A stretch of DNA of 56,105 nt from Candidatus Curtissbacteria bacterium RIFCSPLOWO2_12_FULL_41_16 (GCA_001776545.1 MFBZ01000002.1:1-56105); one strand, 5' to 3'; numbered from the stretch's first letter, positions 1,062 through 54,722 are shown. Numbers and translations are program-made. The notes: generated by a model not told the origin, from the sequence alone.

Positions 1062-1711
1062 AGATAGTAAAATATTTTTTAATAATTTTAATTCCCCTGG
1101 TAATCATTTTAGGCAATTTTCAGTATTTAATCTTCAATCTTAAATTTTATAAGAATCTTTACAATCAAGCGGGAGTTTATCAGTCGTTCCCCGGGGGAGT
1201 GGTAGATGATGCTACGTATAATCTCCTTGGCTACTTTAGAGGAAAAAATAAACTCGATCACAATTTTTTCTCAAACCAGGCGATTTTGCACTTAAAAGAT
1301 GTTAAAGAAATAATAAATTTTACTTCTAGTCTTTTTTATTTATCCGCGGTTGCTGTTTTAGCTCTGTCTATTATTTTAATTGCCAGGAAGCAATCTAAAG
1401 CGTTAACATCCGCCCTTATTGTTTCATCAGTTATCACCATGATATTTATTATTTTGCTATCCATTCCTTTATTTTCAACATTTTCGTCCAACGGACGACC
1501 AGCCTTTGGCTGGGATTTTTTATTTACAAAATTTCATCAAGCGCTATTTAACAATGACCTCTGGCTTTTCTCGCCGGATGATAATTTAATAAGATTATTT
1601 CCCTCTGAGTTTTTCGTATTATTTGCCAATCAACTCGCAATGAATATACTAGTCACATCTGGGGTAATTATCATCAGTTCATTCCTGTTAAAAAAGAAAT
1701 TTTCAATTTGA
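1058..1711 (+). CDS. TIGR01906/DUF1461-family membrane protein, candidate lipoprotein intramolecular transacylase (Lit-like)
   Basis: 217 aa with N- and C-terminal TM helices. The segment FFSNQAILHLKDVKEII resembles the Fs..E..Hm.DVK signature of the DUF1461/Lit family. It sits immediately upstream of lgt. Confidence 0.55.
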   Translation: MKIVKYFLIILIPLVIILGNFQYLIFNLKFYKNLYNQAGVYQSFPGGVVDDATYNLLGYFRGKNKLDHNFFSNQAILHLKDVKEIINFTSSLFYLSAVAVLALSIILIARKQSKALTSALIVSSVITMIFIILLSIPLFSTFSSNGRPAFGWDFLFTKFHQALFNNDLWLFSPDDNLIRLFPSEFFVLFANQLAMNILVTSGVIIISSFLLKKKFSI

Positions 1712-1760
1712 AATTTGAAATTTTCATTGAAAATTGAAAAGTAAAAATTTAAAATTCGGA
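1705..1760 (+). repeat. period-7 degenerate tandem repeat filling the spacer upstream of lgt
   Basis: AATTTGA AATTTGA AATTTTC ATTGAAA ATTGAAA AGTAAAA ATTTAAA ATTCGGA in one register. It begins inside the TGA stop of the upstream gene and ends 1 nt before the lgt ATG. Confidence 0.75.
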
Positions 1761-1761
1761 A

Positions 1762-2520
1762 ATGTTACTGCGTTCAATAAACATCGGTCCACTAACTATC
1801 CATCTGTATGGACTCATCATTGCTCTATCGATCTACCTCGGCTGGTTGCTTGCCAAAAAAAGAGCTCATATTTACAAGATCCCTCAAAAAATTTTTGATG
1901 ATCCAATTCTTCTGGTTCCACTGGCTTTTGCCATATTTGGCGCTAGGCTTTATCATGTTTTGGATTTACGGGATTATTACTTGGCACACAAAAGTCTGAT
2001 ATTTGCCATTTGGAACGGGGGATTGGGGATTTGGGGAGCATTAATCGGCGCATTTATCGGCTTCTGGGTTATTTCCAAAGTCAAAAACGTCAACCTTCTA
2101 TCCATTCTGGATCTTGCGGCGCCTTCACTCCTTTTAGGTCAGTCGATCGGCAGAATCGGTAACTTCCTCAACCAGGAAGCTTTCGGTCCACCAACCGGCT
2201 TCCCTTGGGGAGTTTACATCAGTCCCGGGAATCGGCCAATCCAGTTCGCGAACTCCACCCGCTTCCACCCCACCTTTTTTTACGAAGCCGCAATCGATTT
2301 AGTCTTTTTAGTCCTCCTTCTTTTCCTCACTAGAAAATTAAGAATTTCCGGTCAAACATTTTCCCTTTATCTTATTTTCTACGCTACAGGTCGCTTTATT
2401 GTTGAATTTTGGCGAATTGATACTTGGGTTGTCGGTTCAGTCAAAGTTGCCCAGATTTTAGCAGTATTGACACTTATATTTGGAGTAGCCACCTTTATGC
2501 GAGCTCGGCATAAACCCTGA
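1762..2520 (+). CDS. lgt: prolipoprotein diacylglyceryl transferase
   Basis: 252 aa, polytopic. Lgt signature GQSIGRIGNFLNQEAFG and HPTFFYEA. Confidence 0.9.
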   Translation: MLLRSINIGPLTIHLYGLIIALSIYLGWLLAKKRAHIYKIPQKIFDDPILLVPLAFAIFGARLYHVLDLRDYYLAHKSLIFAIWNGGLGIWGALIGAFIGFWVISKVKNVNLLSILDLAAPSLLLGQSIGRIGNFLNQEAFGPPTGFPWGVYISPGNRPIQFANSTRFHPTFFYEAAIDLVFLVLLLFLTRKLRISGQTFSLYLIFYATGRFIVEFWRIDTWVVGSVKVAQILAVLTLIFGVATFMRARHKP

Positions 2521-2573
2521 TGTGTCAAGATAAAGACACCCCTGTGGTGCCTAAAATGACTAAGAAAGAAGAG

Positions 2574-2602
2574 TTGACAACCATTAGCACTCATGGTATG
2601 CT
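2574..2602 (+). promoter_or_regulatory. sigma70-like promoter upstream of lon (TTGACA-17-TATGCT)
   Basis: TTGACA at 2574-2579, a 17-nt spacer, and TATGCT at 2597-2602. It overlaps a CIRCE-like half site. Confidence 0.5.
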
Positions 2603-2611
2603 GTCTGCTAA
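2584..2611 (+). promoter_or_regulatory. CIRCE-like inverted repeat (possible HrcA operator)
   Basis: TTAGCACTC at 2584-2592 matches the CIRCE left arm exactly. The right arm GTCTGCTAA (2603-2611) matches GAGTGCTAA at 7/9, with a 10-nt rather than 9-nt spacer. Confidence 0.3.
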
Positions 2612-2782
2612 TCGAGTTTGACTCGATGCCAATCTCTCGATGTCACAATCAAGCATAGACAAAGCTGATACAATATAAAGGGAATAAGGGATCTATTATC
2701 CCAAATTTAGAAGAAATTTGGAAAGGAAGACAGTTACTCATAAGAGATCCCCAAATCGCCAAAGGCGATTAGGGGTGTTTAC

Positions 2783-5203
2783 ATGGCCATATTTTTAGAG
2801 AATCAAAAACCAAGGATAAAAAGTGAACTGCCAATTGTGCCTCTTCGTGACACTGTCGTTTTTCCGTCGTCCATGGTTCCCATCACCGTCGGCAGGCCAA
2901 AAGTTAAACTGGGCTTGGACAGCAGTTGGGCCACGGACAGACTTGCCGTTTTCGTTTCCCAGAAAAACCCCAGGATTGAAAATCCGGCACCTAACGATAT
3001 CTACGCTGTAGGAACAGTCGGCTTAATTAGAAGACTTTGGAAGGTTGAAAATGAATACAATCTGGCAGTTGAAGGATTAAGCAGGGTTTACCTTAAAGAA
3101 TTCAGTCAGATTGATCCGTATTTGGCGGTAAAAGTAGAAGAAATCCCGGAACTGACTCAAAAAACCGAAGAAACGGAAGCTCTCTTTAGAAATATTTTAG
3201 CCAAAATTAAAAGATATGGGGAACTTGGCGGAACTCTCACCCTGGAATCATCGATTCATATTTTTTCCACCGACGACCCCAACCAGCTTGTTGACATAAT
3301 TGCGGCCTCAATTGAGCTTAAGACCATTGATAAGCAACAAATCCTTGAAATGGTTGACACTAAAGCCCGGCTTGAACGCCTTTCCGAACTATTAACTCGC
3401 GAAATTAGAATTTTAGAAATTTCCTCAAAGATCGATACTGAAACGCAGGAAAGGGTAGGGAAAGTCACCAAAGAAGCAATACTTCGCGAGAAAATGAAAT
3501 CGATTGAAAAAGAATTAGGGGAGGACGAAGAAGGTCGCGAAACCACCGAGCTTAGGAAAAAAATCAAAGCTGCCGGTATGCCGCAGGAGGTTAGAAATAA
3601 GGCAGAAAAAGAACTGTCCCGGCTTGCCAGGATGTCATCTTACAATCCTGAATCTTCATACATTCGTACGTATCTGGAGTGGTTGGTCGATCTGCCCTGG
3701 ATCGTTAAGAATAGAAAGCCGGCTGACGTTGATTTCGCCGCCAAAGTTTTAGATGAAGATCATTATGGTCTTCCAAAAGTCAAGGAACGAATTTTGGAAT
3801 ACCTGGCAGTCCACAAGCTTGTCGGTAAGATCAAAGGCCCGATCCTTTGTTTTGTCGGTCCGCCCGGTACCGGCAAAACTTCGATTGGTAAATCTATAGC
3901 TCGTGCCTTGGATCGTAAATTCATCAGAGTTTCACTTGGCGGTATTCACGATGAAGCCGAAATCCGCGGCCACAGACGAACCTATGTCGGAGCGCTTCCG
4001 GGAAGAATTATTCAGGGGATTAAAAATGCGCATGCTAAAAATCCGGTCTTTATGCTTGACGAAATTGATAAAATCGGAGTGGACTTTCGCGGCGATCCAT
4101 CCTCAGCCTTATTGGAAGCCTTAGATCCCGAACAAAACAATTCTTTCTCCGATCATTATTTGGAAGTTCCTTACGATCTTTCCGATGCTATGTTTATCAC
4201 AACAGCCAATGTTTTAGATACTATTCCACCGGCACTCCGTGATCGCTTGGAAGTAATTGGTTTCCCGGGCTATACGGAAGAAGAAAAGTTCCATATCGCT
4301 AAGCAATTTTTGATCCCGAAACAACTCGAGGCCCATGGACTTAAAAAAGATAAAGTTAACTTTACCGACAGTAGTATCAAAGAGATTATTTCAAGGTACA
4401 CGAGAGAAGCCGGAGTCCGTGAACTTGAAAGAGAAATAGCTGCAGTCTTGAGAAAAATTGCCAGAAAATTCGCATCAGGAGCCGGCCAGAAAAAGATCAC
4501 CATTTCCCATAAAAAAATTCCGGCCTACATTGGACCTTACAAATTTACTAAAACAATTGCCGAAACTCGCGATGAAATTGGCATGGCCACCGGTCTTTCA
4601 GTAACCCCGGCCGGCGGCGAAATTCTTTTTGTGGAAGTTACCTTAATGGCAGGTAAGGGCCGTTTAATATTAACCGGCCAACTTGGGGATGTCATGAAAG
4701 AATCCGCCCAGGCCGCGCTTTCTTATGTCAGATCGCGCGCCAAAGTTTTAGGTCTGGCCGAAGATTTTGCCGCAAAAATCGATGTACATATCCACGTGCC
4801 GGAAGGTGCTGTTCCCAAGGAAGGACCTTCAGCAGGAATTGCCATAACCACGGCATTGGTTTCTGCCCTAACCAAAATTCCGACACGTCGCCAGGTTGGC
4901 ATGACCGGCGAAATAACACTGCGAGGTAGAGTTTTAGAAATTGGCGGAGTCAAAGAAAAAGTTTTGGCGGCTCACAGGGCAGGTTTGACTACGATAATTT
5001 TGCCTAAAGATAATGCTAAAGATCTTGAGGATACTCCTAAAAATGTCAAGCGCGACCTGCAGTTTATCTTTGCGGAGCATCTGGACGAAGTCCTCAAGGT
5101 TGCACTTACCCGCGCCTTGCCCACTGAGAAAGACTCCCAAAAGAAGGTCTATAAAAAGGCAAAAGAGACCCCGGTTTTACCGCTTGCTCAAACAGTAGCT
5201 TAA
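2783..5203 (+). CDS. lon: ATP-dependent Lon protease
   Basis: 806 aa. Walker [10 protein letters not shown], Lon N-terminal domain, and proteolytic serine motif [10 protein letters not shown]. Confidence 0.95.
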
Positions 5204-14058: not shown

Positions 14059-14645
14059 AAAAGGAAGTACTCAAAAAAATTTTAAAAGTATTTTTGACAC
14101 TTCAGTGGGCCAAAGAACTTCCCCGCCAAGGATTTATCGCGCTCGGTTTTAAACGAAACGAAGCCGATTCGGTAGCGGCCCATTCATGGACCACGACAAT
14201 GCTGACTTACATGTTGGCAATGGAGATGGCGGGAGACGGCCAGAAGATTAACGTTGATAAAGCCATTAAAATGGCCCTTTTTCATGATATGGCAGAAACA
14301 ATAGTCGGTGATGTCGGAACCTTTGTGAAGGGGATGGCCAAAGGGGCCTTTGCGCCGATTGAGGAGGAAGGCCTCAAGTGGTTAGTTGCCAATCTTCCGT
14401 CTAGGAAGGAAATAACAGACCTTGTTAGTGAATATATGCGAAGGAAGACCCTGGAAGCAAGATTGGTAAAGGTTGCCGATAACTTGGATGCGCTGGCCCA
14501 GGCAAAAGGTGTGCCAGCCGCTGCCTCTGCGCTAAAATATTTTAAGGAAGTCTATCACATAACAAAAATACCCTGGCATAAAGAAGCGGTTGAGATGATT
14601 TTAAAAGATGAAGTGGTGCCGGAAAGGAGCTGGCAGAAGAAGTAA
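14055..14645 (+). CDS. HD-domain phosphohydrolase (YfbR-like)
   Basis: 196 aa with AAHSW...LFHDMAETIVGDV (H...HD...D). ATGA start/stop overlap with lysS. Confidence 0.75.
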   Translation: MKKEVLKKILKVFLTLQWAKELPRQGFIALGFKRNEADSVAAHSWTTTMLTYMLAMEMAGDGQKINVDKAIKMALFHDMAETIVGDVGTFVKGMAKGAFAPIEEEGLKWLVANLPSRKEITDLVSEYMRRKTLEARLVKVADNLDALAQAKGVPAAASALKYFKEVYHITKIPWHKEAVEMILKDEVVPERSWQKK

Positions 14646-14719
14646 ATAGTTAATCGTAAATCGTTAATGGGAAAACCCTGAAATCGCTATGAACGATAAA
14701 CTATAAACAATAAACGTCA
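14643..14719 (+). repeat. period-7 degenerate tandem repeat filling the HD-serS spacer
   Basis: Single register: TAAATAG TTAATCG TAAATCG TTAATGG ... AACGATA AACTATA AACAATA AACGTCA. Confidence 0.7.
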
Positions 14720-33479: not shown

Positions 33480-33562
33480 CCAGATCCGCCTCCATAAAGG
33501 CACACCAAGTGACCCTTCTTGACCAAACCGCCTAGTCCTTCCGCTACACATTTTAAGCAACG

Positions 33563-34309
33563 AACTACGAGGTCCGACCTCGCAGTTACAGTAGTATAAT
33601 CAGATCATGCCTTCCAAACACTCAGTTAAATTATACATTGAGAACGGGATCTACCATGTTTACAACCGTGGTGTTGAAAAAAGAACTATCTTTCAAGATC
33701 ACGACTACAAAGTCTTCCTTCACTATTTGAAGCGCTATTTATCTGAGCCAAACAACGAGGTCGGACCTCGTTGGAAACTTCGGTGGAACCAAGGCCTCCA
33801 CGAGAAGTTGCATTTAATGGCATATTGCTTGATGCCGAATCATTTTCATCTGTTACTTAAACAGTTTTCAAAAGAAGCAATAACTACTCTCATGCGATGT
33901 CTTTCGAATTCGTACACCAAATATTTCAACGAAAAATATGATCGAGTAGGCCCCCTCTTCCAGGGGAAATTTAAGGCTGTTTTAGTTGAAAATGATAATT
34001 ATCTTTTGCACTTGACACGCTACATCCACCTGAATCCTATCAACCATCGAGAAAGTACTACGAGGTCCGACCTCGTAGTACTGGCAAAATTCAATTACTC
34101 AAGCTACGCCGATTACTTAGGAAAAAGGCATACTCAGTGGCTTAATGTTAAAGAGGTATTAAATTACTTCAATAACCCTACATCTCTCAATATCTATAAG
34201 AAACATTCGTATAAAGAATTCGTAGAAGATTTTGCTATTGATTCCGGTTCCGCACTTCAGGAACTAGTGATTGAATAGTAGCTACGAGAACTACGAGGTC
34301 CGACCTCGT
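33563..34309 (+). mobile_element. REP-RAYT unit: IS200-like tyrosine transposase gene flanked by and containing REP hairpins
   Basis: Hairpins at 33563-33587 (upstream), 33753-33773 and 34054-34082 (within the CDS) and 34293-34309 (downstream). All share ACGAGGTC-S-GACCTCGT, with CTAC/GTAG next to the stem. Confidence 0.8.
33607..34278 (+). CDS. REP-associated tyrosine transposase (RAYT, IS200/Y1 HUH family)
   Basis: 223 aa with YHVYNRG, HUH motif MPNHFHLLLKQ and catalytic Tyr block HLTRYIHLNP. Confidence 0.85.
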   Translation: MPSKHSVKLYIENGIYHVYNRGVEKRTIFQDHDYKVFLHYLKRYLSEPNNEVGPRWKLRWNQGLHEKLHLMAYCLMPNHFHLLLKQFSKEAITTLMRCLSNSYTKYFNEKYDRVGPLFQGKFKAVLVENDNYLLHLTRYIHLNPINHRESTTRSDLVVLAKFNYSSYADYLGKRHTQWLNVKEVLNYFNNPTSLNIYKKHSYKEFVEDFAIDSGSALQELVIE

Positions 34310-34331
34310 TGAAAACTCAAATTCTTACCGC

Positions 34332-39050: not shown

Positions 39051-39133
39051 TTTTATTTGTGTCTTGACAAGGCTGGACGGGCCCTGTTAAGCTTTAGCAA
39101 GCTAGAAAACTGAATAGTTTTTGAACCGACCGC

Positions 39134-39189
39134 AAACGGAGGTTTGTTTCTTAGGTCAAATGACCTAGGGGATAAACCTCCGTTTTTTT
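39134..39189 (+). terminator. strong two-tier intrinsic terminator
   Basis: Outer stem AAACGGAGGTTT / AAACCTCCGTTT, inner stem TAGGTC / GACCTA, followed by T7. Confidence 0.7.
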
Positions 39190-39280
39190 GAATTGCGAAT
39201 TGCGAACTATGAATCGCGAATTAATAAAAGTTTTCAATATTTCGAAGTTCATAATTCGAAGTTCAAATTTCTGAAGAAAG
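39190..39280 (+). repeat. period-7/14 degenerate tandem repeat upstream of the 39297 gene
   Basis: Single register: GAATTGC GAATTGC GAACTAT GAATCGC GAATTAA ... ATTTCGA AGTTCAT AATTCGA AGTTCAA ATTTCTG. Confidence 0.75.
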
Positions 39281-39296: not shown

Positions 39297-40586
39297 ATGC
39301 ACAAACTTCTTTATAAAGCAGGTACCGGTCTCGCAGCAGCAGCAATAATTGCGCAGGGTTTCGCAGGTGTAGCTTTGGCAAGTTTAGACGTTGAAATCTC
39401 CGGAAACGGAGCAAACAGCGATAACACTGCTAACGTTGCAGTATCAACTGATACTCAAGTTACGCAGAATAACACCGCTAACATCACAAACAACGTCAAT
39501 GTCTCAGCAGACACCGGCGCAAACGACGCCAACAAGAATACAGGCGGAGATGTAGACATTACTACAGGCAATGCCACGACAACTGTTGGTGTTTCAAACA
39601 CTGCAAATTCAAATGTTGCAGACGTTAACGGATGTTGCCCAAGCGATCTAAACGTTAAGATTTCTGGAAACGGTGCTAAGAGTGACAACGATGCAAATGT
39701 CGCAGTCAAAAACAGCACATGGGTTGACCAGAACAACTACGCCAAGATCAAGAACAACGTTGACGTAGATTCCGACACCGGCAAGAACGATGCCAACGGC
39801 AATACAGGCGGCAGTGTATCCATCACAACCGGAAATTCCTCAAGTGACGTTGCTGTTTCTAACACGGCAAACAAAAACGTTGCAACAGTAGGCAATGGTT
39901 CCGGAGGCGGATCACTCTCAGTTGTTATTTCTGGAAACGGTTACAAGAGCACTAACACTGCAAATGTAGCAGTAGCATCTCTAACAGGTGTTCAACAGAA
40001 TAACAGAGCAAAGATCACCAATGACGTTGACGTCGATGCAGACACCGGCAAGAACGATGCTAACCACAACACCGGCGGAGATGTAGAAATCTTAACCGGC
40101 AATGCGGATGCAGAAGTTGATGTTTCCAACTTGGCAAACTTCAACTTTGCGGATGTTGATTCTTGCGGCTGTATTCTTGACGGAACCGTCAAAATAGCCG
40201 GCAACGGTGCAAAGAGCGACAACGACGCAAATGTAGCGCTTGCTAGTGCCAAGGTAATTGGCCAAAACAATGACTACTCTTGCGGTTACGGTCATAGAGG
40301 TGGAAACGACGTGAATTCTTCTTCTGAGAATGGTCACAAGTCTACACCATGCAATGACGTAAATGTCGATCTGGACACCGGTAAGAACGACGCAAACGGC
40401 AATACTGGCGACCCTGGTGGTGACCCATCAGTAACAACCGGTAATGCTGAAGCCGATGTAGTGGTCGAGACAACTGCAAATTCCAACGTTGTTGGAGATG
40501 CGGATTTCGATTTTGACTTCCCTGAGATAGATCTTGGCGGAAGTTCAGCGTCGCTACTTTTGTTGCTTTTGGCTTTCTTTAGCTAA
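39297..40586 (+). CDS. secreted protein of four ~89-aa Asn/Thr/Gly-rich modules with a hydrophobic C-terminus
   Basis: 429 aa, signal peptide ending ALA. Modules at nt 39381-39647, 39648-39914, 39915-40184 and 40185-~40510. Each contains SGNGA.S.N.ANVAV...Q.N.A.I.N.V.V..DTG.NDAN.NTGG.V.I.TGN, with Cys pairs at module junctions. Confidence 0.75.
   Translation: MHKLLYKAGTGLAAAAIIAQGFAGVALASLDVEISGNGANSDNTANVAVSTDTQVTQNNTANITNNVNVSADTGANDANKNTGGDVDITTGNATTTVGVSNTANSNVADVNGCCPSDLNVKISGNGAKSDNDANVAVKNSTWVDQNNYAKIKNNVDVDSDTGKNDANGNTGGSVSITTGNSSSDVAVSNTANKNVATVGNGSGGGSLSVVISGNGYKSTNTANVAVASLTGVQQNNRAKITNDVDVDADTGKNDANHNTGGDVEILTGNADAEVDVSNLANFNFADVDSCGCILDGTVKIAGNGAKSDNDANVALASAKVIGQNNDYSCGYGHRGGNDVNSSSENGHKSTPCNDVNVDLDTGKNDANGNTGDPGGDPSVTTGNAEADVVVETTANSNVVGDADFDFDFPEIDLGGSSASLLLLLLAFFS
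39381..40510 (+). repeat. four tandem ~267-270-nt coding repeats (protein modules)
   Basis: Module boundaries were read from the translation. The long antisense ORFs here are a by-product of the repeat composition. Confidence 0.8.
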
Positions 40587-40600: not shown

Positions 40601-40669
40601 ATTCTTGGAGGCTTTGCCCAAAGGGTTGGAGTCTCAAAACAAGAACTCTGAGGGTAAACCTCCAAGAAT
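40601..40669 (+). other. long-range stem structure in the 3' region of the 39297 gene
   Basis: ATTCTTGGAGG (40601-40611) pairs with CCTCCAAGAAT (40659-40669), an 11-bp perfect stem enclosing 47 nt. No T-run follows. Confidence 0.5.
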
Positions 40670-40681: not shown

Positions 40682-40716
40682 ATAACAATTGACATTTGAC
40701 AATTAACAATTGACAG
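40682..40716 (+). repeat. period-7 repeat ATAACAA TTGACAT TTGACAA TTAACAA TTGACAG
   Basis: Five units in one register, including three TTGACA hexamers. Confidence 0.75.
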
Positions 40717-40775: not shown

Positions 40776-43049
40776 TTGATAAGATTTGTAAAAAAATTAA
40801 GAAAAGTTTTTATAAGCTGGGTGCTTGTTTTTGCACTTGTTTTGGGAACGCCTACTTTTGTATTTTCGCAGACTGCACCGGATCCCCTTACACCTCCTGA
40901 TCCGATAACTGCACCAGAACCATTGAATATTTCGCCGCCTCCTGCACCGACACCGCCGCCAGCGCCCACACCTCCGCCTCCAATAGTATTTCCATCGCCA
41001 AGCCCATTTCCGAGCCCCTCACCCATAGTTGCGCCTTCGCCATTGCCGACTACTCAGCAAACTTCAGGGTCAACAGACCAAAACCAAGGTTCTACTACCC
41101 AAACCAGAAATAGGAACAGCACAAACGAGGGCACAACCGCAAACAGCACGCCCACGGTTTCCGCGGACACAGGCCACAGTTCTTCGGGTAACACTGGCGG
41201 CAATACAGCCATTGCAACAGGCAACGCAACTGCAGCAGGTGTCATTACATCCACTGCAAATGGTGCGGTAGTAACAGCAGGCAGCGGTTCCTCATGCAGT
41301 GCCTGTGTTCCTTCGGCATCTGCGACAAACAGCGGAAACGGTGCCGATTCGACCAATAATTCTTCCGCTTCCACTTCAAATAATACGGATGTGGATATCA
41401 ACAACACCGCGGTTATTGTTAACAATGCTAATTTTGAAGCCGACAGCGGCCACAACAACACTTCTTACAATACGGGCGGGGACTCCGATATCATTTCAGG
41501 CGATGCCAATGTTTCGGCAACCGTAATTACCAACGCAAATTCCGTTAATTTGGGCATTTATGAATTTGATGTTGTTGATAACCACACAGGGGATATAATC
41601 TTGGGGCAAAATCTGGAAAATTGCGTAAACTGTACCTCCGGTTCAACTTCGGCAGAAAACTCGGGGAACGGTGCCGATTCTACAAATGATGCAACGGCTT
41701 CTTCAAATTCGACCACAACCGAAACCATAAACAATGATGCGGATGTTGTAAACAATATTAATATTGATGCCGACAGCGGTCACAATAAGGCAAATTACAA
41801 TACAAACGGCGATTCCAACATTACGACCGGTGATGCCAATGTTGTTGCCAATGTTGTAAACGCAGTCAACACAGTTGTAGATGGCGTTGTTTATACAGTC
41901 AATATCTTCGGCGATTTGGTCGGTAATATAATTTTGCCCGACCAAAACTCTCAGGCCGACAGTGGTTGCGACAATTGCTGTGGTGGCGATGTCTTGGCGT
42001 CCAACACAAACAATGGTGCAGACAGCACCAATACAACGACTGCCTCAGTATCTTCGACTTCAACAACAACTCAAACTAACAATGCCACTATCAATAACAA
42101 TTTGAACCTTGATGCCAATTCCGGAGGGAATCAGACAAGCTTTAACACAGGTGGCGATAATTTGGTTGAGACAGGGGATGTTTCAGTTGATGCCAATGTG
42201 ATTAACGTTGCCAACGTCAATGTTGCAGGAACAGCTTGTGACTCACCTGTTTATATGGTCTTTATTAACGACCCAAATGGTAACTGGCAAGGGCAAATCG
42301 CCGGAGCAGGTCCTGGAACTTATTTCTATACTTCGGATGGCCTCATTTATGTGGTTGGCGAAAATGGTGATTTAATCGCCGTTAATTCCGGCAATGGTGC
42401 GGGTTCAACAAGCACTTCGACTGCCACACAGTCCAGCGATACCAACATTACTCAGAACAATACCGGCACGATCACCAACAACATCAATATCGATGCCAAT
42501 ACCGGTGATAACCAGGCTTCTTACAACACGAATGGTGACTCAAGCGTTAAAACCGGTGATGCCAATATCTTTGTCAATGTCGTAAACTTTATTAACTCCA
42601 ATTTCTCCGGCCGCAAAATTGTCATGACTTTAGTTAACGTCTTTGGTTCTTGGCTTGGCCATTTCGTGCCGCCGGGATTTAGCGCGCCGACAAACCAGGC
42701 GCAGGGGGATAATCCTGACACATCCAGCCAATCACAATCAGGCGGTCAGCAAGGATCAGGCGGATCCGGTGGTTCATCCTCATCAACTTCGTCAGGATCC
42801 GGCAGTCAGCCAATAGTTGGTAGTATTGCCTCCGGCGCAAGTTCCGTCTTTACCGGACTGGTTGGTGGCGCAAGAACAGAAAAAATTGTTCAAGACGACA
42901 ACTCCATAGCCCTTGGTCTATCATCCAATGGTCAGGACAACCAAACACAAGAAGATTCATCACTTGGTTTCAAACTATTATTGTTTGCAATTCCGCTAAT
43001 TTTTATCGGGTTCTTTTTAAGAAGACTACTCGCGCGTTCTCAATCCTGA
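40776..43049 (+). CDS. large secreted/anchored protein: Pro-rich N-region, at least 5 Asn/Thr/Gly-rich modules, Ser/Gly-rich stalk, C-terminal TM plus basic tail
   Basis: 757 aa, TTG start, signal peptide ending VFSQ. Repeated cores such as ADSGHNKANYNTNGDSNITTGDANVVANVVN. CxxC-type junctions (SCSAC, NCVNC, GCDNCC). C-terminus FKLLLFAIPLIFIGFFLRRLLAR. Confidence 0.75.
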   Translation: MIRFVKKLRKVFISWVLVFALVLGTPTFVFSQTAPDPLTPPDPITAPEPLNISPPPAPTPPPAPTPPPPIVFPSPSPFPSPSPIVAPSPLPTTQQTSGSTDQNQGSTTQTRNRNSTNEGTTANSTPTVSADTGHSSSGNTGGNTAIATGNATAAGVITSTANGAVVTAGSGSSCSACVPSASATNSGNGADSTNNSSASTSNNTDVDINNTAVIVNNANFEADSGHNNTSYNTGGDSDIISGDANVSATVITNANSVNLGIYEFDVVDNHTGDIILGQNLENCVNCTSGSTSAENSGNGADSTNDATASSNSTTTETINNDADVVNNINIDADSGHNKANYNTNGDSNITTGDANVVANVVNAVNTVVDGVVYTVNIFGDLVGNIILPDQNSQADSGCDNCCGGDVLASNTNNGADSTNTTTASVSSTSTTTQTNNATINNNLNLDANSGGNQTSFNTGGDNLVETGDVSVDANVINVANVNVAGTACDSPVYMVFINDPNGNWQGQIAGAGPGTYFYTSDGLIYVVGENGDLIAVNSGNGAGSTSTSTATQSSDTNITQNNTGTITNNINIDANTGDNQASYNTNGDSSVKTGDANIFVNVVNFINSNFSGRKIVMTLVNVFGSWLGHFVPPGFSAPTNQAQGDNPDTSSQSQSGGQQGSGGSGGSSSSTSSGSGSQPIVGSIASGASSVFTGLVGGARTEKIVQDDNSIALGLSSNGQDNQTQEDSSLGFKLLLFAIPLIFIGFFLRRLLARSQS

Positions 43050-49368: not shown

Positions 49369-50011
49369 TTAAAACCCAATCTTTTCCTTCATGGAGTAAA
49401 TAATGAACTGTTGAATAAGGATACATAGCGGTTAAATTTTTCTTGACATAAATATGCTTGATATTATTCTTTTCAATTTCCTTTAATCTTTCCTTGTTTA
49501 GATAATCTTTCGCGCCGACTCCGGAAAGATAAGTATCTGCCCCGTGTTTCTTACAGATATTTATCAAAAGTTCGTGTTTATTTCCAGTGACATCTTCATC
49601 TAAAACCACGGGGGTTTTAATTTCTAAAATACCGCGCAATGTTAAAATTGCTGCTAAATTTAAATCAACCAGTCTTTCCCAAGGACTCTCATAAATTTTA
49701 GTAAGCTCACCCATATATTCGTGGCCCTTACCCTTGGAATAAATAATTTCCAGTGATCGACGGTGCTTTTTTCGCCAATTAATCTGATTATTAATCTTTA
49801 CATCTTTTATTTTCTGGTTTTGAGATCCCACTACTGGCACTGTTAACCAAATATCGCCATTGGGCCCTTTAATTTTGTGTCTTTGTTGCCAGCCTTCCTG
49901 CTTTTCAAACTGCAGATTCGTAATAACCACAAACTTGTCTGCCTGCTTCATTTTAGAAAAGAAAGCTAAATTGGGTAAAAAATTAGGTTGGTGAGCCGCA
50001 ATTATACTCAT
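49358..50011 (-). CDS. WbqC-family protein
   Basis: 217 aa. The N-terminus IIAAHQPNFLPNLAFFSKMKQADKFVVITNLQFEKQEGWQQRHKIK matches the WbqC signature. Confidence 0.75.
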   Translation of the reverse strand: MSIIAAHQPNFLPNLAFFSKMKQADKFVVITNLQFEKQEGWQQRHKIKGPNGDIWLTVPVVGSQNQKIKDVKINNQINWRKKHRRSLEIIYSKGKGHEYMGELTKIYESPWERLVDLNLAAILTLRGILEIKTPVVLDEDVTGNKHELLINICKKHGADTYLSGVGAKDYLNKERLKEIEKNNIKHIYVKKNLTAMYPYSTVHYLLHEGKDWVLNVI

Positions 50012-50736
50012 TTATCAGATATCACTCTCCAGGCTCCAAAAGCTTCGGCATAATCGCTTCCGCACATTGCGCCTGCCAAAACCACCAAGGACTCAATAAT
50101 TTTGGAAGATCTTAGACTAGGTGCTTCTCTTAGTTGTGACTTATATAACTCGAGAGCTTTGATTTTTGCATCTACCTGGGTTCTGTCTAAAGGCACAAAA
50201 AAATTATTTGCAGAACTATTCTCTAACGTCCACATATCTGCCGGTACTTTATAAGAAAGAACGGCCGAAACAAAATGTTTTAGGCCCGGTTTGTTGCCTG
50301 CCGGTGCTGGCCTTAATGCCGCATGGGCTGCCGCCGCCACAATCCTATGATCTTGGTTATAAGAAGCAGGGGAGGGAAAGGTTACAACTGTAGGTTTTAC
50401 TTTCTCAATCGAAACTTTGCTATTTCTTTCAATCACATCCATCAATACTTTCTGTCCTAAAGTATCAAGCTTTAAATGATAGTCATTTCCTTTAAACTCC
50501 ACGCTATAATCGTCAAATTTTAAAAACTTCGCCACAACTTCAACTTCTTTCAATCTTTGGTCGCCAGTAGATAAACCTTCTTTGGTAAAATCTCTTGTAT
50601 CTCCGACCGTTAAAAAAAGCACATAAACCTTACCGCCAGCATCTTTAATTTTTTTGATCAGCCCACCACAACCAATAACTTCATCGTCTGGGTGTGGAGC
50701 AAGAACCAATAGCCTTTGTTTTTTTAATTCAAACAT
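50008..50736 (-). CDS. PIG-L/LmbE-family N-acetylglucosaminyl deacetylase
   Basis: 242 aa with LVLAPHPDDEVIGCGG and a downstream HxDH-type block (NQDHR). Confidence 0.85.
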   Translation of the reverse strand: MFELKKQRLLVLAPHPDDEVIGCGGLIKKIKDAGGKVYVLFLTVGDTRDFTKEGLSTGDQRLKEVEVVAKFLKFDDYSVEFKGNDYHLKLDTLGQKVLMDVIERNSKVSIEKVKPTVVTFPSPASYNQDHRIVAAAAHAALRPAPAGNKPGLKHFVSAVLSYKVPADMWTLENSSANNFFVPLDRTQVDAKIKALELYKSQLREAPSLRSSKIIESLVVLAGAMCGSDYAEAFGAWRVISDK

Positions 50737-50848: not shown

Positions 50849-50903
50849 TTTTCACAACAGATAATTCATACCTGCCTATGAAAATTCCCTGCCTGGCCAT
50901 CCA

Positions 50904-50952
50904 CATCCTTTATCCCTCATCCTTCATAATTCAGACTTCATACTTCATAATC
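50904..50952 (+). repeat. period-7 pyrimidine-rich repeat in the 5' UTR of the 50977 gene
   Basis: CATCCTT TATCCCT CATCCTT CATAATT CAGACTT CATACTT CATAATC in one register, directly upstream of the SD AAGGAAGGAGGTG. Confidence 0.8.
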
Positions 50953-50976
50953 CTAAGGAAGGAGGTGAACTCAATA

Positions 50977-51321
50977 ATGAAAAGATTGTTAACCAGAGTT
51001 GGCGTCGGGGTTACCGCAGCTTCAATGTTTGCGGCAGCTTTTGCTCCGGCCGCCGCTTTTGCTAATGGTGGTGGTAACAGTTGCGAGATTAAAAACAACG
51101 GTGCCTTTTCCCGCAACCGCTGCCGGATTACCGAAATAAATGTCCAGGTAACCAGACAGAACAACCGGGCCAGCATTTGGAACGGCGTTTTGGTGATTGC
51201 CAATACCGGCGGAAATGAGGCCAACGGAAATACCGGCGGCAATGTCGACGTCGACAGTGGCAATGCCACGGTTAATGTCAGAATTACCAATACCGTTAAT
51301 CAAGACAATACTGCTAATTAG
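50977..51321 (+). CDS. small secreted single-module Asn/Gly-rich protein
   Basis: 114 aa from ATG 50977, with SD GGAGGTG 8 nt upstream. Signal peptide ending AFA. Module ...VLVIANTGGNEANGNTGGNVDVDSGNATVNVRITN. The ORF-track start 50878 is rejected. Confidence 0.7.
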   Translation: MKRLLTRVGVGVTAASMFAAAFAPAAAFANGGGNSCEIKNNGAFSRNRCRITEINVQVTRQNNRASIWNGVLVIANTGGNEANGNTGGNVDVDSGNATVNVRITNTVNQDNTAN

Positions 51322-51333: not shown

Positions 51334-51383
51334 AAAAAAAAGCCCTGCTCTCGGAATCTATTTCTTAAGGCCGGGCTTTTTTT
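51334..51383 (+). terminator. possible bidirectional terminator (A-run, AGCCC...GGGCT, T-run)
   Basis: AAAAAAAAGCCC ... GGGCTTTTTTT. The loop is large (about 27 nt), so this is a weak call. Confidence 0.35.
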
Positions 51384-51499
51384 AAAGAAAATTTCTTAAA
51401 CTTATCACTGATTACGTTTTAGACGTCGATCGTAGCATAAAACGTTATGTGTTGCTCCGAAGTAGAGATTTAAGTGTGTACGAATACCGCGGGGCTTTT

Positions 51500-52225
51500 T
51501 TATGGTGTCGGCGAAATCTCAGGTGAGGAAAAAGGGGAAGGCGACAAACTTGCCGAGGGAGTTGCCGAACCCGTTGCTATCCGCTCCAAAAGCCCGATTG
51601 CGCGGCCGCCAATCACATGAACCTTCTTGGCAATTAAATTATCACCAGACCAGTTACCAACAGCCGTCACCCGGTCTCCAGCTTTGATATTGCCAATGGT
51701 TGCCGCTTCCAGACCTTTTATTTTGATGATTGTCCCCTCAACCACCTCAACATTGTATCTCGGGTTATCCTTGATCGGATGTGAAACAACCAGTATATTG
51801 CCGTTAATCTCCCGTACTAGTCCATAAACAGCCCTTCTTCTTGTTTCAGGCTTTGCTGACTCGGTTGCCGATTTAGGCTTGACCAAGATCAAATTGGCCG
51901 AGCCGGTGGCATTTGGGTTGGCAAATGTCGCGATGCGGTCGTCTTTCTTAAGTTGAAAAGGAGTCAGTTTTTTCCCGCTTGGCTTCTCGATAATAGAAGT
52001 ACCCTGACCGGTTTTAACTTCTATTTTTTTACCCTTGTGTTCTATCTCGACCTTCCCCGGCTTAACATCATTTACTCTTCCTACATCGACATCAACCTCA
52101 TGCTTTTTTGTCTGTCCGGAGGCCGTATCCTTTACGCCTAAAACTTGCGTATAGGCCAAAGCGATAGATGGTGTAATCAAAACTGTTAAAGTAATTAAAA
52201 CGATAGCAAAAACTTTATCCTTCAT
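51500..52225 (-). CDS. secreted protein with DUF5666-like beta domains
   Basis: 241 aa with a signal peptide. Repeated G.V..v.g..l.v...-type segments ([15 protein letters not shown]...[23 protein letters not shown]). Tentative family. Confidence 0.5.
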
Positions 52226-52231
52226 CCTTAT

Positions 52232-52371
52232 TACTTATCACTTATTACTTATCACTTATCACTTATCACTTCTCACTTATTACTTCTCACTTATCACTTC
52301 TCACTTATCACTTCTCACTTATCACTTCTCACTTATCACTTCTCACTTATCACTTCTCACTTATCACTTAT
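52232..52371. repeat. 20-unit heptanucleotide tandem array (YACTTMT; CACTTATCACTTCT 14-mers)
   Basis: The units were counted one by one. Units 9-18 strictly alternate CACTTAT/CACTTCT. The array runs from 7 nt upstream of the ATG at 52225 (minus strand) into the TAA stop at 52368-52370 of the upstream gene. Confidence 0.97.
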
Positions 52372-53126
52372 AGCTCTTCTTCCCTCACATAAACCACCGA
52401 CCTGGTTTCGCTTGTTTCCTCATTATTGTCCCCAAAAGCCGTGATCGTGATGTCATTCGGTCCCTCGTCCAAAGTCAAAGTCCCGGAAAAATCGCCATTA
52501 TCGTCACTCTCATATGTTTCTTCGCTGCTCTCGGTATAAGCAGTCACCATGCTATCGGGGCTTGTTTTGCCTTCGATCTGAATCTGCGCCGAAGTTGTCG
52601 CCATTTGATCTTGCGGAGCCGCTATAATAAGCGATGCTTTCGGGCGTTCAACTCTGGTGGTAATTTCTTCCGGCACCGCTTTATTTCTTTGGCTCCACCA
52701 CCAATAGCCGCCTCCGGCAACTGCAGCTATCAAAATAATGAATGCCAATACCACCCCTGCCACCTTTGTTTTAGACGAGCCTTGCCCTTGCGTGTTTTCA
52801 GTGGCAACAGGCGGCGCTTCGTCAACCGGTATTTTGCTGGCCAGTTCCCCAGCAGGCGCTGACGGGGCCGATTCGGTCTGAGACTCACGGTCGAAGGCTT
52901 GCACCGTATCGCCTGTTGCGATAACCGCCGATTGTCCTGAGGGTTCGTCCGAGGGAGTCGAACCGCTGGCCGTCGTGTTGGGTTCGGGTGTAATGGGTGG
53001 TGTATCCGGCTGAGTGGGGATTTCCTCTGCCGGCGGACTCAGTGGTGATTGCGGTAAAGTTGGCTCAGTTTTTGTGGAATCATCACCCATGTAGTTAGAA
53101 TACTTGAGGTGAAAGTTGATTGTCAA
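52368..53126 (-). CDS. Pro/Thr/Ser-rich protein with central TM helix and C-terminal beta domain
   Basis: 252 aa from TTG 53126, with an alternative ATG at 53090. [25 protein letters not shown]. No family recognised. Confidence 0.5.
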
Positions 53127-53142
53127 TCGGGAGGAAAAGGTT

Positions 53143-53238
53143 TTGAGGGTCGGACCCTCAAAAAAACTATAGCGACTGATCTTTTAAAGGGTCCGACCCT
53201 GAGGAAAAGTTTCTTGGCCTTTAAAAAGGTCCGACCTT
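53143..53238. repeat. cluster of three REP-like hairpins (GGTC-S-GACC core)
   Basis: TTGAGGGTCGGACCCTCAA (53143-53161), AGGGTCCGACCCT (53188-53200) and AAGGTCCGACCTT (53226-53238). GAGGAAAAG is repeated at 53131 and 53201. Confidence 0.8.
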
Positions 53239-53294
53239 GAACAAAATTAGTTACTATTCTGAAAACCACGAGGTGAAATCAGTTGTGACTTTTT

Positions 53295-53353
53295 CCACCT
53301 CCGAGGAGTCCCCTTCGACTTCGCTCAGGGCAAGCAAGCCCACCTCGGAGGTG
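53295..53353. repeat. palindromic element pair of the CACCTC-S-GAGGTG family
   Basis: CCACCTCCGAGG (53295-53306) and CACCTCGGAGGTG (53341-53353) are separated by 34 nt. Confidence 0.8.
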
Positions 53354-53370
53354 TTTTGCAAGGAGAGTCT

Positions 53371-53429
53371 TTGATCCATTTTCACACCACTTCGTCCCAA
53401 TTGACACGTAGTTTTCATGGGTCTAATCT
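53371..53429 (+). promoter_or_regulatory. promoter (TTGACA-17-TAATCT) with conserved upstream box
   Basis: Hexamers at 53401-53406 and 53424-53429. The box TTGATCCATTTTCACACCACTTCGTCCC resembles the one at 50791-50819. Confidence 0.55.
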
Positions 53430-53476
53430 GGATTGAACACCAATTTCAGTCTGCATGCAAGTTACTGTCCGACTGT

Positions 53477-54661
53477 ATGCAGAACATATCTGCCCGACTA
53501 AACTCAAAAGTCCTTCTTTCAATAGCAACTATTTTTGCGGCCGCGGCCATCGTCCTCGGCGCTACTTTTGCTTTTTTCTCAGATACGGAAACATCCAAAG
53601 ACAATACATTTGTAGCCGGTGCTTTGGATCTTAAAGTAAACGGAGAAGATGATCCGTCACAGATCGTAAATATCACAGACCTGAAACCAGGCGACGATTA
53701 TCTTATCGATAAAACTTTATTGGTAGATTTTAACCCTGCCAAAATTTATGTCCATATCAAAGATATTGTTAATAATCAAGGCACGCAAACCGAGCCAGAG
53801 AATCTAGAGGAAGACAATACGCCTAAAAGCGACATCCAGAATTTCCTCACCTACGATCTTAAAGTTCAAGATGAAGTCATTATTTCGTTCCAAAACAATG
53901 TTCTCTTACCGGATGCTGTTTCCTGCTGGATCCCCCTCGGCCAAATTCCCGGTAATCAAAATGTTACCGTCACCCAAAGCTTTCACTTTGACGAAGACGT
54001 AACCAATTGGGCACAAGGTGACATCTTAACTTTCACCGAAGAATTCTTGGCTCTTCAAATTAACGACCCTACAATTCCCACAACCGGAGAAAATGTATGG
54101 AACCCCGACACAAAAAGCTGCGAACCCCCGCCTGTTATTGTCTCATGTGAACCAAATGACGCAATCTTTGCAAGCGGGTTTAGTAATGTTGCACAAGGCC
54201 TTCGAAAAGATGGCACTGCGGTTTTAGCCGATCGATCAGATCCAAACGACGCCACTGGAGCACCGCAAAGTCTTGGTAATCCAGACGACACGCCAGTTGT
54301 TGCTGGTAGTTTTTTCAGTTTAGGGTTCCCGCATGCTAATAACGGAAATGTTCCTGGCACTTTAGAACTTTCATTTAGCGAACCTTTCTTCCCGAATCCG
54401 AGCGGTTCCGATTTGCAAGTATTTGAGGTAACCGGAGGAACCTATCCCGAGGAGAGGGTTAGGGTGGAAGTAAGCCCAGACGGAACAACTTGGACGCTGG
54501 TTGCTGCTTCTGCTCTTCGCGACGCCCCAATTGAAATAAGCCCATTGACTTCTGCTCAATTTATCCGATTAACAGAAGCAAGCAATATCGCACCTTTCGA
54601 ATCAACTGCGGACGGATACGATCTTGACGCGGTTAAAGCATTTTGCACAGAAGCGGATTAA
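53477..54661 (+). CDS. TasA/camelysin (M73)-family protein with SipW-type signal peptide and ~190-aa C-terminal extension domain
   Basis: The start at ATG 53477 lies downstream of the predicted promoter. N-terminus KVLLSIATIFAAAAIVLGATFAFFSDTETSKDNTFVAGALDL is the SipW-dependent signal/TasA signature. The core ends ...QGDILTFTEEFLALQ. Confidence 0.75.
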   Translation: MQNISARLNSKVLLSIATIFAAAAIVLGATFAFFSDTETSKDNTFVAGALDLKVNGEDDPSQIVNITDLKPGDDYLIDKTLLVDFNPAKIYVHIKDIVNNQGTQTEPENLEEDNTPKSDIQNFLTYDLKVQDEVIISFQNNVLLPDAVSCWIPLGQIPGNQNVTVTQSFHFDEDVTNWAQGDILTFTEEFLALQINDPTIPTTGENVWNPDTKSCEPPPVIVSCEPNDAIFASGFSNVAQGLRKDGTAVLADRSDPNDATGAPQSLGNPDDTPVVAGSFFSLGFPHANNGNVPGTLELSFSEPFFPNPSGSDLQVFEVTGGTYPEERVRVEVSPDGTTWTLVAASALRDAPIEISPLTSAQFIRLTEASNIAPFESTADGYDLDAVKAFCTEAD

Positions 54662-54722
54662 GGATGGGATTTAGGATGAAGGATAAAGCCCAGTACCTTT
54701 TAGGCTTAATTACTAAACAAAC

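Follow-up and report, generated by a model that had tools for sequence, protein, structure and literature searches.

Genomes of CPR bacteria (Patescibacteria) are small and tightly packed, and a locus in which entire intergenic spacers appear to consist of tandem heptanucleotides raises the question of how such DNA arises and whether it serves a function. We addressed this question in a stretch of 56,105 nt (hereafter the window), which matched contigs of Rifle groundwater MAGs at 99.9% identity and had its nearest named homologues in Candidatus Curtissbacteria; statements about genome-wide behavior are extrapolated from these 56 kb.

First, we analyzed whether period 7 stood out from other periods. 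In approximately 4.3 kb of intergenic DNA, autocorrelation exceeded that of 300 shuffles only at lags 7, 14 and 21 (z = 5.6, 4.6 and 4.7, respectively), and no enrichment was observed at lags 2-6, 8-13 or 15-20. When the large array was left out, the lag-7 signal persisted (z = 3.3), with a run statistic of 11 compared with 0.08 expected. A scan at lags 4 to 15 for segments with at least 20 matches in 28 revealed five intergenic segments at lag 7, three at lag 14 and none at the other lags, whereas genic matches were found at lags 6 and 12, plus one lag-7 case (1114-1151). A previous reading of the sequence alone had proposed that at least seven spacers are degenerate period-7 repeats and had asked for such a comparison with shuffled controls; within the window's intergenic DNA, its proposal was borne out. 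The same was true for the individual tracts that it listed. Based on 2000 dinucleotide shuffles within the coordinates originally given for each tract, the top match fraction fell at lag 7 or its multiple 14 in all seven, with lag-7 match fractions of 0.52-0.86 (p <= 0.001). Tract 7 had the weakest signal (p = 0.0065 once the maximum over lags was used) and is considered marginal. With TRF, arrays of period 7 or 14 were reported for all loci but the seventh (Table 1).

Table 1. Heptamer tracts in the window, with their genic surroundings (flanking genes of tract 1 assigned by Pfam) and TRF arrays; positions are counted from the first nucleotide of the window.
Tract	Position	Strand	Repeat	Setting	TRF arrays
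1	1696..1760	+	~8 heptamers: AATTTGA, AATTTGA, AATTTTC, ATTGAAA x2 etc.	fills spacer from Lit (1058-1711) to Lgt (1762-2520)	1696-1723; 1726-1756
2	14642..14719	+	TAAATAG/TTAATCG x4, non-repeat centre, AACNATA x4	with stop codon, entire 73-nt spacer from HD-domain gene to SerRS	14642-14668; 14687-14715
3	39190..39269	+	GAATTGC x4.7, then 14-mer ATAATTCGAAGTTC x2.4	leader of gene 39297-40586, directly 3' of conserved hairpin and U-run (39134-39189)	39190-39222 (period 7); 39237-39269 (period 14)
4	40685..40715	+	TTGACAN/ACAATTG x4.4 (TRF)	3' of conserved hairpin 40602-40668, upstream of gene 40776-43049	
5	50904..50949	.	CATCCTT/CATACTT x6.4 (TRF); minus strand AAGGATG	divergent spacer between PIG-L gene (50008-50736, -) and 114-aa ORF (50977-51321, +)	
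6	52215..52371	-	21 heptamers [T/G]AAGT[G/A]A, higher-order 14-mer centrally	entire 142-nt spacer from gene A (52368-53126, Glucodextran_B-like) to gene B (51500-52225)	52215-52371, 22.6 copies; as 14-mer, 9.8 copies at 96%
7 (marginal)	54655..54690	+	GGATNNA/AAGGATN x4-5	spans stop of camelysin-like gene 53417-54661; upstream of GIY-YIG ORF 54723-55037	period 12 (54655-54678)

Several details of these tracts should be mentioned. The lag-7 match of tract 1 was 0.71-0.72 (p = 0.0005), and that of tract 7 was 0.80 over 22 nt and 0.59 over 36 nt. The longest ORF call at tract 5 (50878-51321) would enclose the repeat; however, the better start is at 50977, behind the Shine-Dalgarno sequence GGAGGTG, and tract 5 was therefore assigned to intergenic DNA. 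Camelysin-like, LTD and subtilase proteins are encoded around tract 6. The ORF of gene A (252 aa) differed from the product of gene callers (240 aa), probably because a different start was called. An apparent presence/absence polymorphism of the GIY-YIG gene turned out to be a gene-calling difference only, the DNA being colinear.

With regard to register, the claim that the repeats run in one 7-nt frame from the upstream stop to the next start held for three tracts, namely 1, 2 and 6. Tract 1 comprised eight units from 1705, with the stop TGA (1709-1711) inside unit 1; tract 2 comprised 11 units, which begin with the T of the HD-gene stop TAA (14643) and end on the first base of the SerRS start codon ATG (A, 14719); and the 21 units of tract 6 extended from the stop TAA to TAAGGAT+G, which gives ATG. 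In general, tract words included the local stop codon or SD and resembled the local stop/start junction sequence.

The words themselves were locus-specific. Their pairwise distances (2-4) were those expected of random heptamers, and tandem dimers of each word were found nowhere else in the 56 kb, save for AAGGATN and a few isolated single matches. Thus, the statement that each spacer uses its own word was mostly correct, the exception being AAGGATN, which was common to three loci: tract 5 (50904-50949, minus strand), the end of tract 6 nearest the start codon, and tract 7 (54655-54690). This diversity bears on the idea that the heptamers are iterated sites for a DNA- or RNA-binding regulator, for which S1/Csp/CsrA-type proteins on the TAACTGA repeats of Beggiatoaceae and ToxT/H-NS on the TTTTGAT repeats of the ctxAB promoter have been proposed as parallels. 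Several tracts indeed end only a few nucleotides from a start codon, like the TAACTGA repeats; AAGGATN, with GGA inside, occurs at three loci and in a relative (L180); and tract 4 iterates TTGACA, the -35 consensus. However, no single factor could read all tracts, because the words are about as dissimilar from locus to locus as random heptamers, and close relatives carry unrelated words at one site. Tract 4 was also considered as a stack of -35 boxes, but a consensus scan gave no promoter-like site there. We regard regulator binding as very improbable. An Rfam scan of the window returned tRNA-Glu only, with no curated RNA family at the tracts, and in contrast to REP, MITE or CRISPR elements, TRF and the unit layout revealed no unique spacers between tract units. 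The earlier view that promoters, terminators and mobile elements do not account for the tracts was supported.

Second, we compared orthologous spacers in related genomes. In the related species L090, genes A and B overlapped by ATGA, whereas the window had the 142-nt array of tract 6 between them. The gap between the HD-domain gene and SerRS was 1-2 nt in L097, L100 and L103-L107, compared with 73 nt in the window. L099, whose SerRS was only 74% identical to that of the window, carried AACTATA AACTTTA AACAATA directly before the SerRS ATG, so that the AACNATA half of tract 2 was common to both; this hints at longer persistence or constraint of that half. At the site of tract 3, the leader after the conserved terminator was 49-66 nt in L179, L180, L183 and L181, with no heptamers in these four, and 108 nt in the window. 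The site of tract 4 showed turnover: TTGACAN was present in 5.9 copies in L179 (4.4 in the window), L180 had AAGGATN x4.7 plus AATACNN x5.4, L183 had no array but a proto-repeat (AACAGGT AACAGAC), and L181 had no heptamers. Heptamer arrays were therefore also present in two close relatives, L179 and L180. A metagenome contig search with the camelysin-like protein gave no matches.

Array junctions were 0-4 nt long in relatives, and allele lengths differed by multiples of 7; by these alignments, the arrays were shown to represent net insertions at compact gene junctions. Turnover was fast, close relatives having another copy number, another word or nothing at one and the same site. The unit-number variation that had been suggested as a check on orthologous spacers was thus found (TTGACAN x4.4 versus x5.9, and 21 versus 16 units in tract 6). 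As for the two causes originally offered, one local generating process working in 7-nt steps fits the comparison with relatives, given the junction-like words, net insertions and lengths in multiples of 7; on the other hand, selection on 7-nt phasing found no support, since words and copy numbers turn over in close relatives and sister species lack the tracts.

The same comparisons weigh against the idea that the tracts belong to a mobile repeat family (similar to STRR, REP or MITE elements) that a transposase has dispersed; a candidate would be the IS200/IS605 Y1 enzyme, whose gene lies in the window at 33607-34278. Although tandem arrays also flank a Y1_Tnp gene in L090, those arrays have periods of 13-15 and 14/11 rather than 7. 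Moreover, the IS of the window has ordinary hairpin ends with no heptamers, no Y1 gene lies near the arrays of the heptamer-bearing L179 and L180, and the words are locus-specific within 56 kb. Such a source for the tracts is scarcely tenable and has been largely refuted.

Third, we examined variation among assemblies of the population itself. All tracts except tract 6, those of 4-6 units included, were identical in 7-9 independent assemblies (99.9% identity); the short tracts are thus not an assembly artefact. In 14 kb compared across 7 assemblies, structural variation was confined to tract 6, which had at least four forms: an array of 21 units, one of 16 units, a third arrangement and a gap left unresolved. 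The 16-unit allele was exactly 35 nt shorter and carried a duplicated multi-unit block. These variants were taken from metagenomes assembled from short reads, where two of them sit at contig ends and another is a scaffold gap, and part of the polymorphism may reflect assembly problems; the count of 21 units (147 nt) exceeds the assembly k of 141 to which contig names with 'k141' point and could be collapsed. Only the long, pure array varied within the population and the short, degenerate ones changed only between species, a pattern in which mutability appears to scale with array length and purity.

A variable array in a leader could also be a contingency or 'rheostat' locus, i.e. tract 6, and perhaps tract 4, would be a selected hypermutable leader that tunes a downstream secreted or surface protein. 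Besides its leader position and a unit number that differs among short-read assemblies, tract 6 directly precedes gene B, and the N-terminus of the gene B product is hydrophobic and putatively signal-peptide-like (as read from the sequence). The proteins encoded around it and its status as the sole structurally variable site would also agree with this idea, as would the analogy with hmw1A, whose transcript and protein fall as 7-bp units increase. The genes behind tracts 3 and 4 have no known domain, and by sequence their products may be secreted. However, other tracts precede the housekeeping genes lgt and serS, where bet-hedging would hardly be expected, the short tracts showed no variation within the population, and close relatives show replacement of words rather than conservation. 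Tuning of this kind appears unlikely.

Predicted RNA structure was relevant to one more functional explanation, namely that the tracts are selected as unstructured, stop-rich intercistronic RNA, which would uncouple the translation of neighbors or serve as a ribosome standby site. The RNA of tract 6 had a predicted MFE of 0 kcal/mol, tract 5 was less structured than shuffles (z = +1.8 to +2.1), and TAAGTGA units give stops in all three frames. However, tracts 1-3 folded slightly better than shuffles (z = -1.1 to -1.9), so no structural property was common to the tracts, and relatives manage with overlapping or abutting genes. We find selection for such spacer RNA hardly credible. The paired blocks of tracts 1-3 were also considered as functional hairpins and rejected, their fold z values being individually not significant.

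The explanation that we consider likely is that sequence at the local junctions seeded the tracts as heptanucleotide simple-sequence repeats, which then grew by slippage or unequal exchange and are mostly neutral. An array would be born as a chance two-unit duplication at a gene junction (a stop codon, an SD-like AAGGA, or the bases after a hairpin). It would then grow or shrink in steps of 7 nt or multiples thereof, through slipped-strand mispairing at replication and unequal exchange between units, and would finally be degraded by point mutation. Because 7 is not a multiple of 3, arrays would survive only outside coding sequence and would therefore fill exactly the space from a stop to the next start. 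It is from these patterns that we infer slippage as the mechanism; the arrays are probably mostly neutral passengers in leaders and intercistronic RNA, and seem, judging from the compared sequences, to have arisen recently and locally. The recurrence of AAGGATN, at three loci in the window and in L180, is not predicted by a purely random-seed model.

To estimate how common such arrays are, we used control loci; a contig search with UDP-glucose dehydrogenase, which gave only 37-43% identical matches from unrelated phyla and no orthologous spacers, supplied a control panel. The window contained 7 arrays per 4.98 kb of intergenic DNA, compared with 29 per 122.8 kb in controls (ratio 5.9, p = 4e-4), and its array density was 8 times that of sister Curtissbacteria. 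A CPR-wide enrichment was rejected, as 49 distant CPR loci had 2.0 period-7 arrays per 10 kb of intergenic DNA versus 2.2 in non-CPR controls. In a panel of 67 unrelated bacterial loci, long tandem arrays in intergenic DNA likewise had a lag of 7 more often than any other, which makes the heptamer finding less novel than first held. The 7-nt preference of the Curtissbacteria arrays would be the general bacterial one, which has been hypothesized in the literature to reflect how much DNA the replicative polymerase holds. It is rather unlikely that the arrays instead come from a process specific to this Curtissbacteria subclade and working strictly in 7-nt steps (e.g. an altered replicase or repair activity), which would be the main source of new intergenic DNA in a genome otherwise streamlined; some arrays, such as tract 6 in front of a gene with a putatively secreted product, could then have been co-opted as expression rheostats. 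If true, this groundwater population, being resolved to strains, would offer a natural setting in which to study what sets the 7-nt ruler of bacterial repeats.

Approximately 10% of the window's intergenic DNA, including some spacers in their entirety, is recently made heptamer array, which shows how even a streamlined genome can rapidly gain and lose non-coding DNA. The series at one site (none, a two-unit proto-repeat, 4.4 units, 5.9 units, another word) illustrates a microsatellite life cycle in an uncultivated bacterium. Practical use is modest: tract 6 is a candidate strain marker for the groundwater population, and the arrays account for contig breaks and scaffold gaps in these MAGs.

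Finally, we compared the tracts with known heptamer systems. The words of STRRs belong to a small number of families, which are scattered over many loci within a genome. The STRRs of heterocystous cyanobacteria, named as the closest precedent by the sequence-only reading, are likewise intergenic tandem heptamers, some inside operons (e.g. between pecE and pecF in Nostoc); however, the words here are locus-specific rather than dispersed within the 56 kb and the host is a member of the CPR, its nearest named homologues being Candidatus Curtissbacteria, and the general over-representation of heptanucleotide repeats in bacterial intergenic DNA is a closer precedent. The TAACTGA repeats of marine Beggiatoaceae, some Cyanobacteria and Bacteroidetes (169 sets, one dominant word; PMC4679880) also form arrays of 2-6 or more copies that end a few nucleotides before start codons. 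Their word is dominant genome-wide, suggesting a trans-acting reader, whereas no word was dominant before the starts in the window. The ATCTTTC array upstream of Haemophilus influenzae hmw1A/hmw2A, in which more units lower hmw1A transcript and protein (PMC8262952), resembles tract 6 as a long, pure heptamer array in a leader with a unit number that varies between isolates; it is a single contingency locus with a demonstrated effect on expression, whereas in the window many spacers are involved. GGGAATC in Xanthomonas and GGGGAYT in Nostoc are intergenic heptamers as well, found between the same gene pairs in related species with widely varying length and sequence (PMC4692102), but they are G-rich, quadruplex-forming and of one word family, in contrast with the A/T- or purine-rich tracts here, which have no G-runs.

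The closest match was provided by the heptanucleotide LSSRs of Mrazek et al. (2007), who, according to the summaries in PMC4679880 and PMC4692102, found heptanucleotide SSRs over-represented in bacterial intergenic DNA and proposed polymerase slippage. In those accounts, LSSRs share with the tracts tandem 7-nt units of any word, a mostly non-coding location, sporadic phylogenetic distribution, length variation in relatives and a proposed origin by slippage. LSSRs are head-to-tail units of 5-11 nt that run longer than composition predicts, are found chiefly outside coding sequence if the unit length is not divisible by 3, and vary in unit number among strains or relatives. Here the unit was 7 by TRF and shuffles, all real arrays were intergenic, and unit number varied as judged from short-read assemblies. 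We found no description of heptanucleotide SSRs in CPR/Patescibacteria in the literature searched, and know of none. Thus, the heptamer spacers are real but belong to a kind of bacterial simple-sequence repeat already known, as heptameric over-representation has been recognized since 2007; the lineage is new, and, compared with LSSRs as summarized in those sources, the tracts here make up whole stop-to-start spacers in a tightly packed genome.

We compared about 4.3 kb of intergenic window DNA, delimited by a rough gene map of the longest non-overlapping ORFs, with 300 dinucleotide-preserving shuffles, and found that autocorrelation was raised at lags 7, 14 and 21 (z = 5.6, 4.6 and 4.7, respectively), with no enrichment at the other lags from 2 to 21. 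After removal of the long array (tract 6), lag 7 still reached z = 3.3, and a stringent run statistic gave 11 positions at lag 7 against 0.08 expected. With a less strict sliding-window threshold (20 matches in 28), five intergenic segments were recovered at lag 7, three at lag 14 and none at the other lags from 4 to 15; the matches in coding DNA fell at lags 6 and 12, where in-frame repeats are expected, with a single one at lag 7. Tested singly, all seven tracts had their maximum at lag 7 or at twice that lag, 14 (p <= 0.0015), tract 7 being the weakest. TRF detected arrays with a period of 7 or 14 at six loci and assigned period 12 to the seventh (54655-54678). The heptamer-spacer feature is real and statistically solid, as the sequence-only reading had claimed for period-7 spacers, with tract 7 marginal.

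That reading had also held that each spacer keeps a single register and uses its own word. By unit layout, the first point applies literally to three spacers (tracts 1, 2 and 6). The tract words differ from one another as much as random heptamers do, which supports the second, and AAGGATN, present at three window loci, is the exception to locus-specific words. Apart from this common word and the marginal seventh tract, the description was correct overall.

Heptamer tracts, states 3' of hairpin 2 and other elements in the window and in compared loci
Feature	Locus	Position	Content
Tract 1	window	1696-1760	8 units; stop TGA within one unit
Tract 2 (HD-domain gene/SerRS junction)	window	14642-14719	11 units, T of stop TAA to A of ATG
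Tract 3	window	39190-39269	
Tract 4	window	40685-40715	
Tract 5	window	50904-50949	
Tract 6 (long array, between gene A, 52368-53126, and gene B, 51500-52225)	window	52215-52371 (-)	21 units [T/G]AAGT[G/A]A, stop TAA to TAAGGAT+G
Tract 7	window	54655-54690	
3' of hairpin 2	window		TTGACAN x4.4
3' of hairpin 2	L179		TTGACAN x5.9
3' of hairpin 2	L180		AAGGATN x4.7 then AATACNN x5.4
3' of hairpin 2	L183		two-unit proto-repeat AACAGGT AACAGAC and 70-nt MITE-like element
3' of hairpin 2	L181		neither heptamers nor MITE-like element
Distant CPR heptamer spacer	L134	1215-1317	AAAATTC x7.9, then roughly complementary AATTTTT x7.7; SerRS stop to next start
Distant CPR heptamer spacer	L130	10687-10741	
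Distant CPR heptamer spacers	L123	575-609, 3985-4011	
IS200/IS605-type insertion sequence	window	33555-34315	Y1 transposase ORF 33607-34278 (+)
IS hairpin	window	33568-33582, 34294-34308; third copy within ORF, 34061-34075	CGAGGTCCGACCTCG
Promoter-like element	window	39064; 39085-39093	TTGACA; TGTTAAGCT
Hairpin 1	window	39134-39189	24-bp stem and U-run
429-aa protein gene	window	39297-40586	
Hairpin 2	window	40602-40668	TTCTTGGAGG...CCTCCAAGAA, long, without U-run
GIY-YIG ORF	window	54723-55037	104 aa, standalone
GIY-YIG ORF, similar	L095	9676-10008	directly upstream of SerRS
MITE-like element (~70 nt)	L179	about 4990-5050	TTCGAGCTTGTCGAGAA ... GAAGTTCTCGAT..CTCGAACAATA
MITE-like element	L183	about 1650-1720, 3240-3300	
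MITE-like element	L180	about 2110-2185	
In-frame repeat	window	30413-30465	in gene 29914-30780
In-frame repeat	window	36796-36838	in gene 35571-37163 (subtilase)
In-frame repeat	window	40933-40981	in gene 40776-43049
Divergent segment	window	41675-41906	in gene 40776-43049

Density was measured as the number of non-redundant intergenic TRF arrays with a 7-, 14- or 21-nt period. The window held 7 in 4.98 kb, compared with 29 in 122.8 kb of 67 unrelated bacterial loci (rate ratio 5.9, p = 4e-4) and 2 in 11.3 kb of 16 other Curtissbacteria loci (ratio 8, p = 0.005). What is special here is this enrichment in the window genome, which appears to be common to two close relatives; the close relatives L179, L180 and L183 together had 4 arrays in 2.7 kb. 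A further 14 arrays were found in 53.9 kb of 49 more distant CPR loci, and spacers made up wholly of heptamers also occur in individual distant CPR loci. In the intergenic DNA of the unrelated panel, lag 7 was far ahead of every other long tandem period (165 positions versus 2-44 at the other lags, multiples of 7 set aside). Among the contributors (L004, L036, L067, L030, L068 and L082) are Clostridium brassicae, Melioribacter roseus, a Hyphomicrobiales MAG, a Thermodesulfobacteriota MAG and two Calothrix. Thus, the 7-nt preference is general, and the panel independently reproduces, on a small scale, the heptamer bias known from the literature.

At the strain level, the short tracts were all unchanged in seven to nine independent assemblies (~99.9% identity), and the long array was the sole structurally variable site. 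It had 21 units in most assemblies, with one unit substituted in L083, a third arrangement in L088 and a 100-N gap inside it in the L084 scaffold. In L089, it had 16 units, including a duplicated multi-unit block with TAAGGAT at the end, and the spacer measured 107 nt versus 142 nt, exactly 35 nt less. These variants come from short-read assemblies, two of them at contig ends, and the 16-unit array fits within one 141-mer if "k141" in the contig name denotes k-mer length. Unit-number variation, to which the sequence-only reading had pointed as a check, was found in the long array, as read from these assemblies, and in the TTGACAN repeat of the window and L179. The main rival explanation starts from the same array: it lies 5' of gene B, whose product has a signal-peptide-like N-terminus, and by analogy with H. 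influenzae hmw1A, whose heptamer array acts as an expression rheostat (PMC8262952), it could tune gene B in the same way. Across the tracts, a common function found no support in downstream genes, RNA folding or promoter-like sites. The genes that follow the tracts include lgt and serS as well as genes for hypothetical proteins, some of which have signal-peptide-like N-termini; predicted folding spans an MFE of 0 (the completely unstructured long array) to slightly more structure than shuffles; and no promoter-like site in a consensus scan coincides with tract 4.

Orthologous spacers were also compared with those of related species. In L090, genes A and B share an ATGA overlap (gene B products 62% identical) and the C-terminus of gene A aligns up to the stop, so the 142-nt spacer is a wholly new array. 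The HD-SerRS junction is 1-2 nt long in L097, L100 and L103-L107 where the window has 73 nt of heptamers, and the AACNATA block directly 5' of the SerRS ATG is common to the window and L099. Around the gene for the 429-aa protein (identity 90% in L179, 85% in L183, 84% in L180 and 65% in L181), hairpins 1 and 2 are kept in the window and all four relatives, and hypervariable DNA adjoins the 3' side of each. The distance from hairpin 1 to the ATG is 108 nt in the window versus 49-66 nt in the relatives, heptamers at this site occur only in the window, and the state 3' of hairpin 2 differs in all five genomes. At another site in its first spacer, L179 also carries a separate TTAAAGC x5.3 array.

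Several other elements were noted in these regions. Upstream of the 429-aa protein gene, whose product has no known domain, hairpin 1 lies 3' of a conserved promoter-like element; it has six covarying pairs in five genomes and no Rfam match, and may be an attenuator, a leader or a small RNA. The ~70-nt MITE-like element occupies different spacers of close relatives and is absent from the window. The GIY-YIG ORF is flanked by two camelysin (M73)-like paralogues. Relatives carry a similar ORF directly 5' of SerRS, where the window has the HD-domain gene, and this differing position suggests a mobile endonuclease gene. One segment has >60 substitutions in ~240 nt relative to strain contig L085, near the end of that locus, and none relative to the other strain contigs; it could be recombined or hypervariable. 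Three genes contain in-frame repeats with periods of 6, 12 or 18, C/A-rich on the sense strand, which from their codons would be expected to encode Pro/Thr-rich linkers.

With regard to the host, positions 4719-25981 share 99.99% identity with an ENA contig and 99.9% with GCA_001776495.1, and the right-hand part of the window is 99.5-100% identical to GCA_001774835.1, GCA_001775075.1 and JGI, ENA and Logan contigs. The closest named homologues are from Candidatus Curtissbacteria (SerRS 74%, the 429-aa protein 65%), which belongs to Microgenomates within Patescibacteria/CPR and is not cyanobacterial. The gene content (Lit, Lgt, Lon, H+-PPase, SerRS, SecA, camelysin-like M73, subtilase and many proteins without known domain) agrees with this assignment.

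The tracts show the pattern of a microsatellite life cycle. Their words are drawn from the local junction sequence; array instability rises with length and purity; lengths change in multiples of 7, multi-unit block duplication included; and birth, expansion, replacement and loss outpace species divergence. Arrays are kept out of coding sequence, since a unit of 7 is not divisible by 3. This pattern therefore favors slipped-strand mispairing plus unequal exchange, with arrays mostly neutral, which we consider the probable origin, slippage itself being what we infer. The feature points to no new mechanism; its interest lies in the clean stop-to-start arrays of a streamlined CPR genome and in a natural series of turnover states.

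As summarized by two other papers (PMC4679880, PMC4692102), Mrazek et al. (2007) described heptanucleotides as the most abundant longer-unit simple-sequence repeat class in most prokaryotic genomes and proposed polymerase slippage linked to the DNA length touching the enzyme. Known cases include GGGAATC in Xanthomonas and GGGGAYT in Nostoc (PMC4692102), TAACTGA in Beggiatoaceae (PMC4679880), ATCTTTC at hmw1A (PMC8262952), GGGACCG and MTYCTGA in Geobacter, and the cyanobacterial STRR; no report from Patescibacteria was found in the literature searched. The STRR had been put forward as the closest precedent, which does not hold: the window tracts lack the defining features of both the STRR and the TAACTGA network of Beggiatoaceae, because the words are not scattered over many loci of the window and no single one predominates. 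They do show the defining features of the general heptanucleotide simple-sequence repeats, and belong to this already known class.
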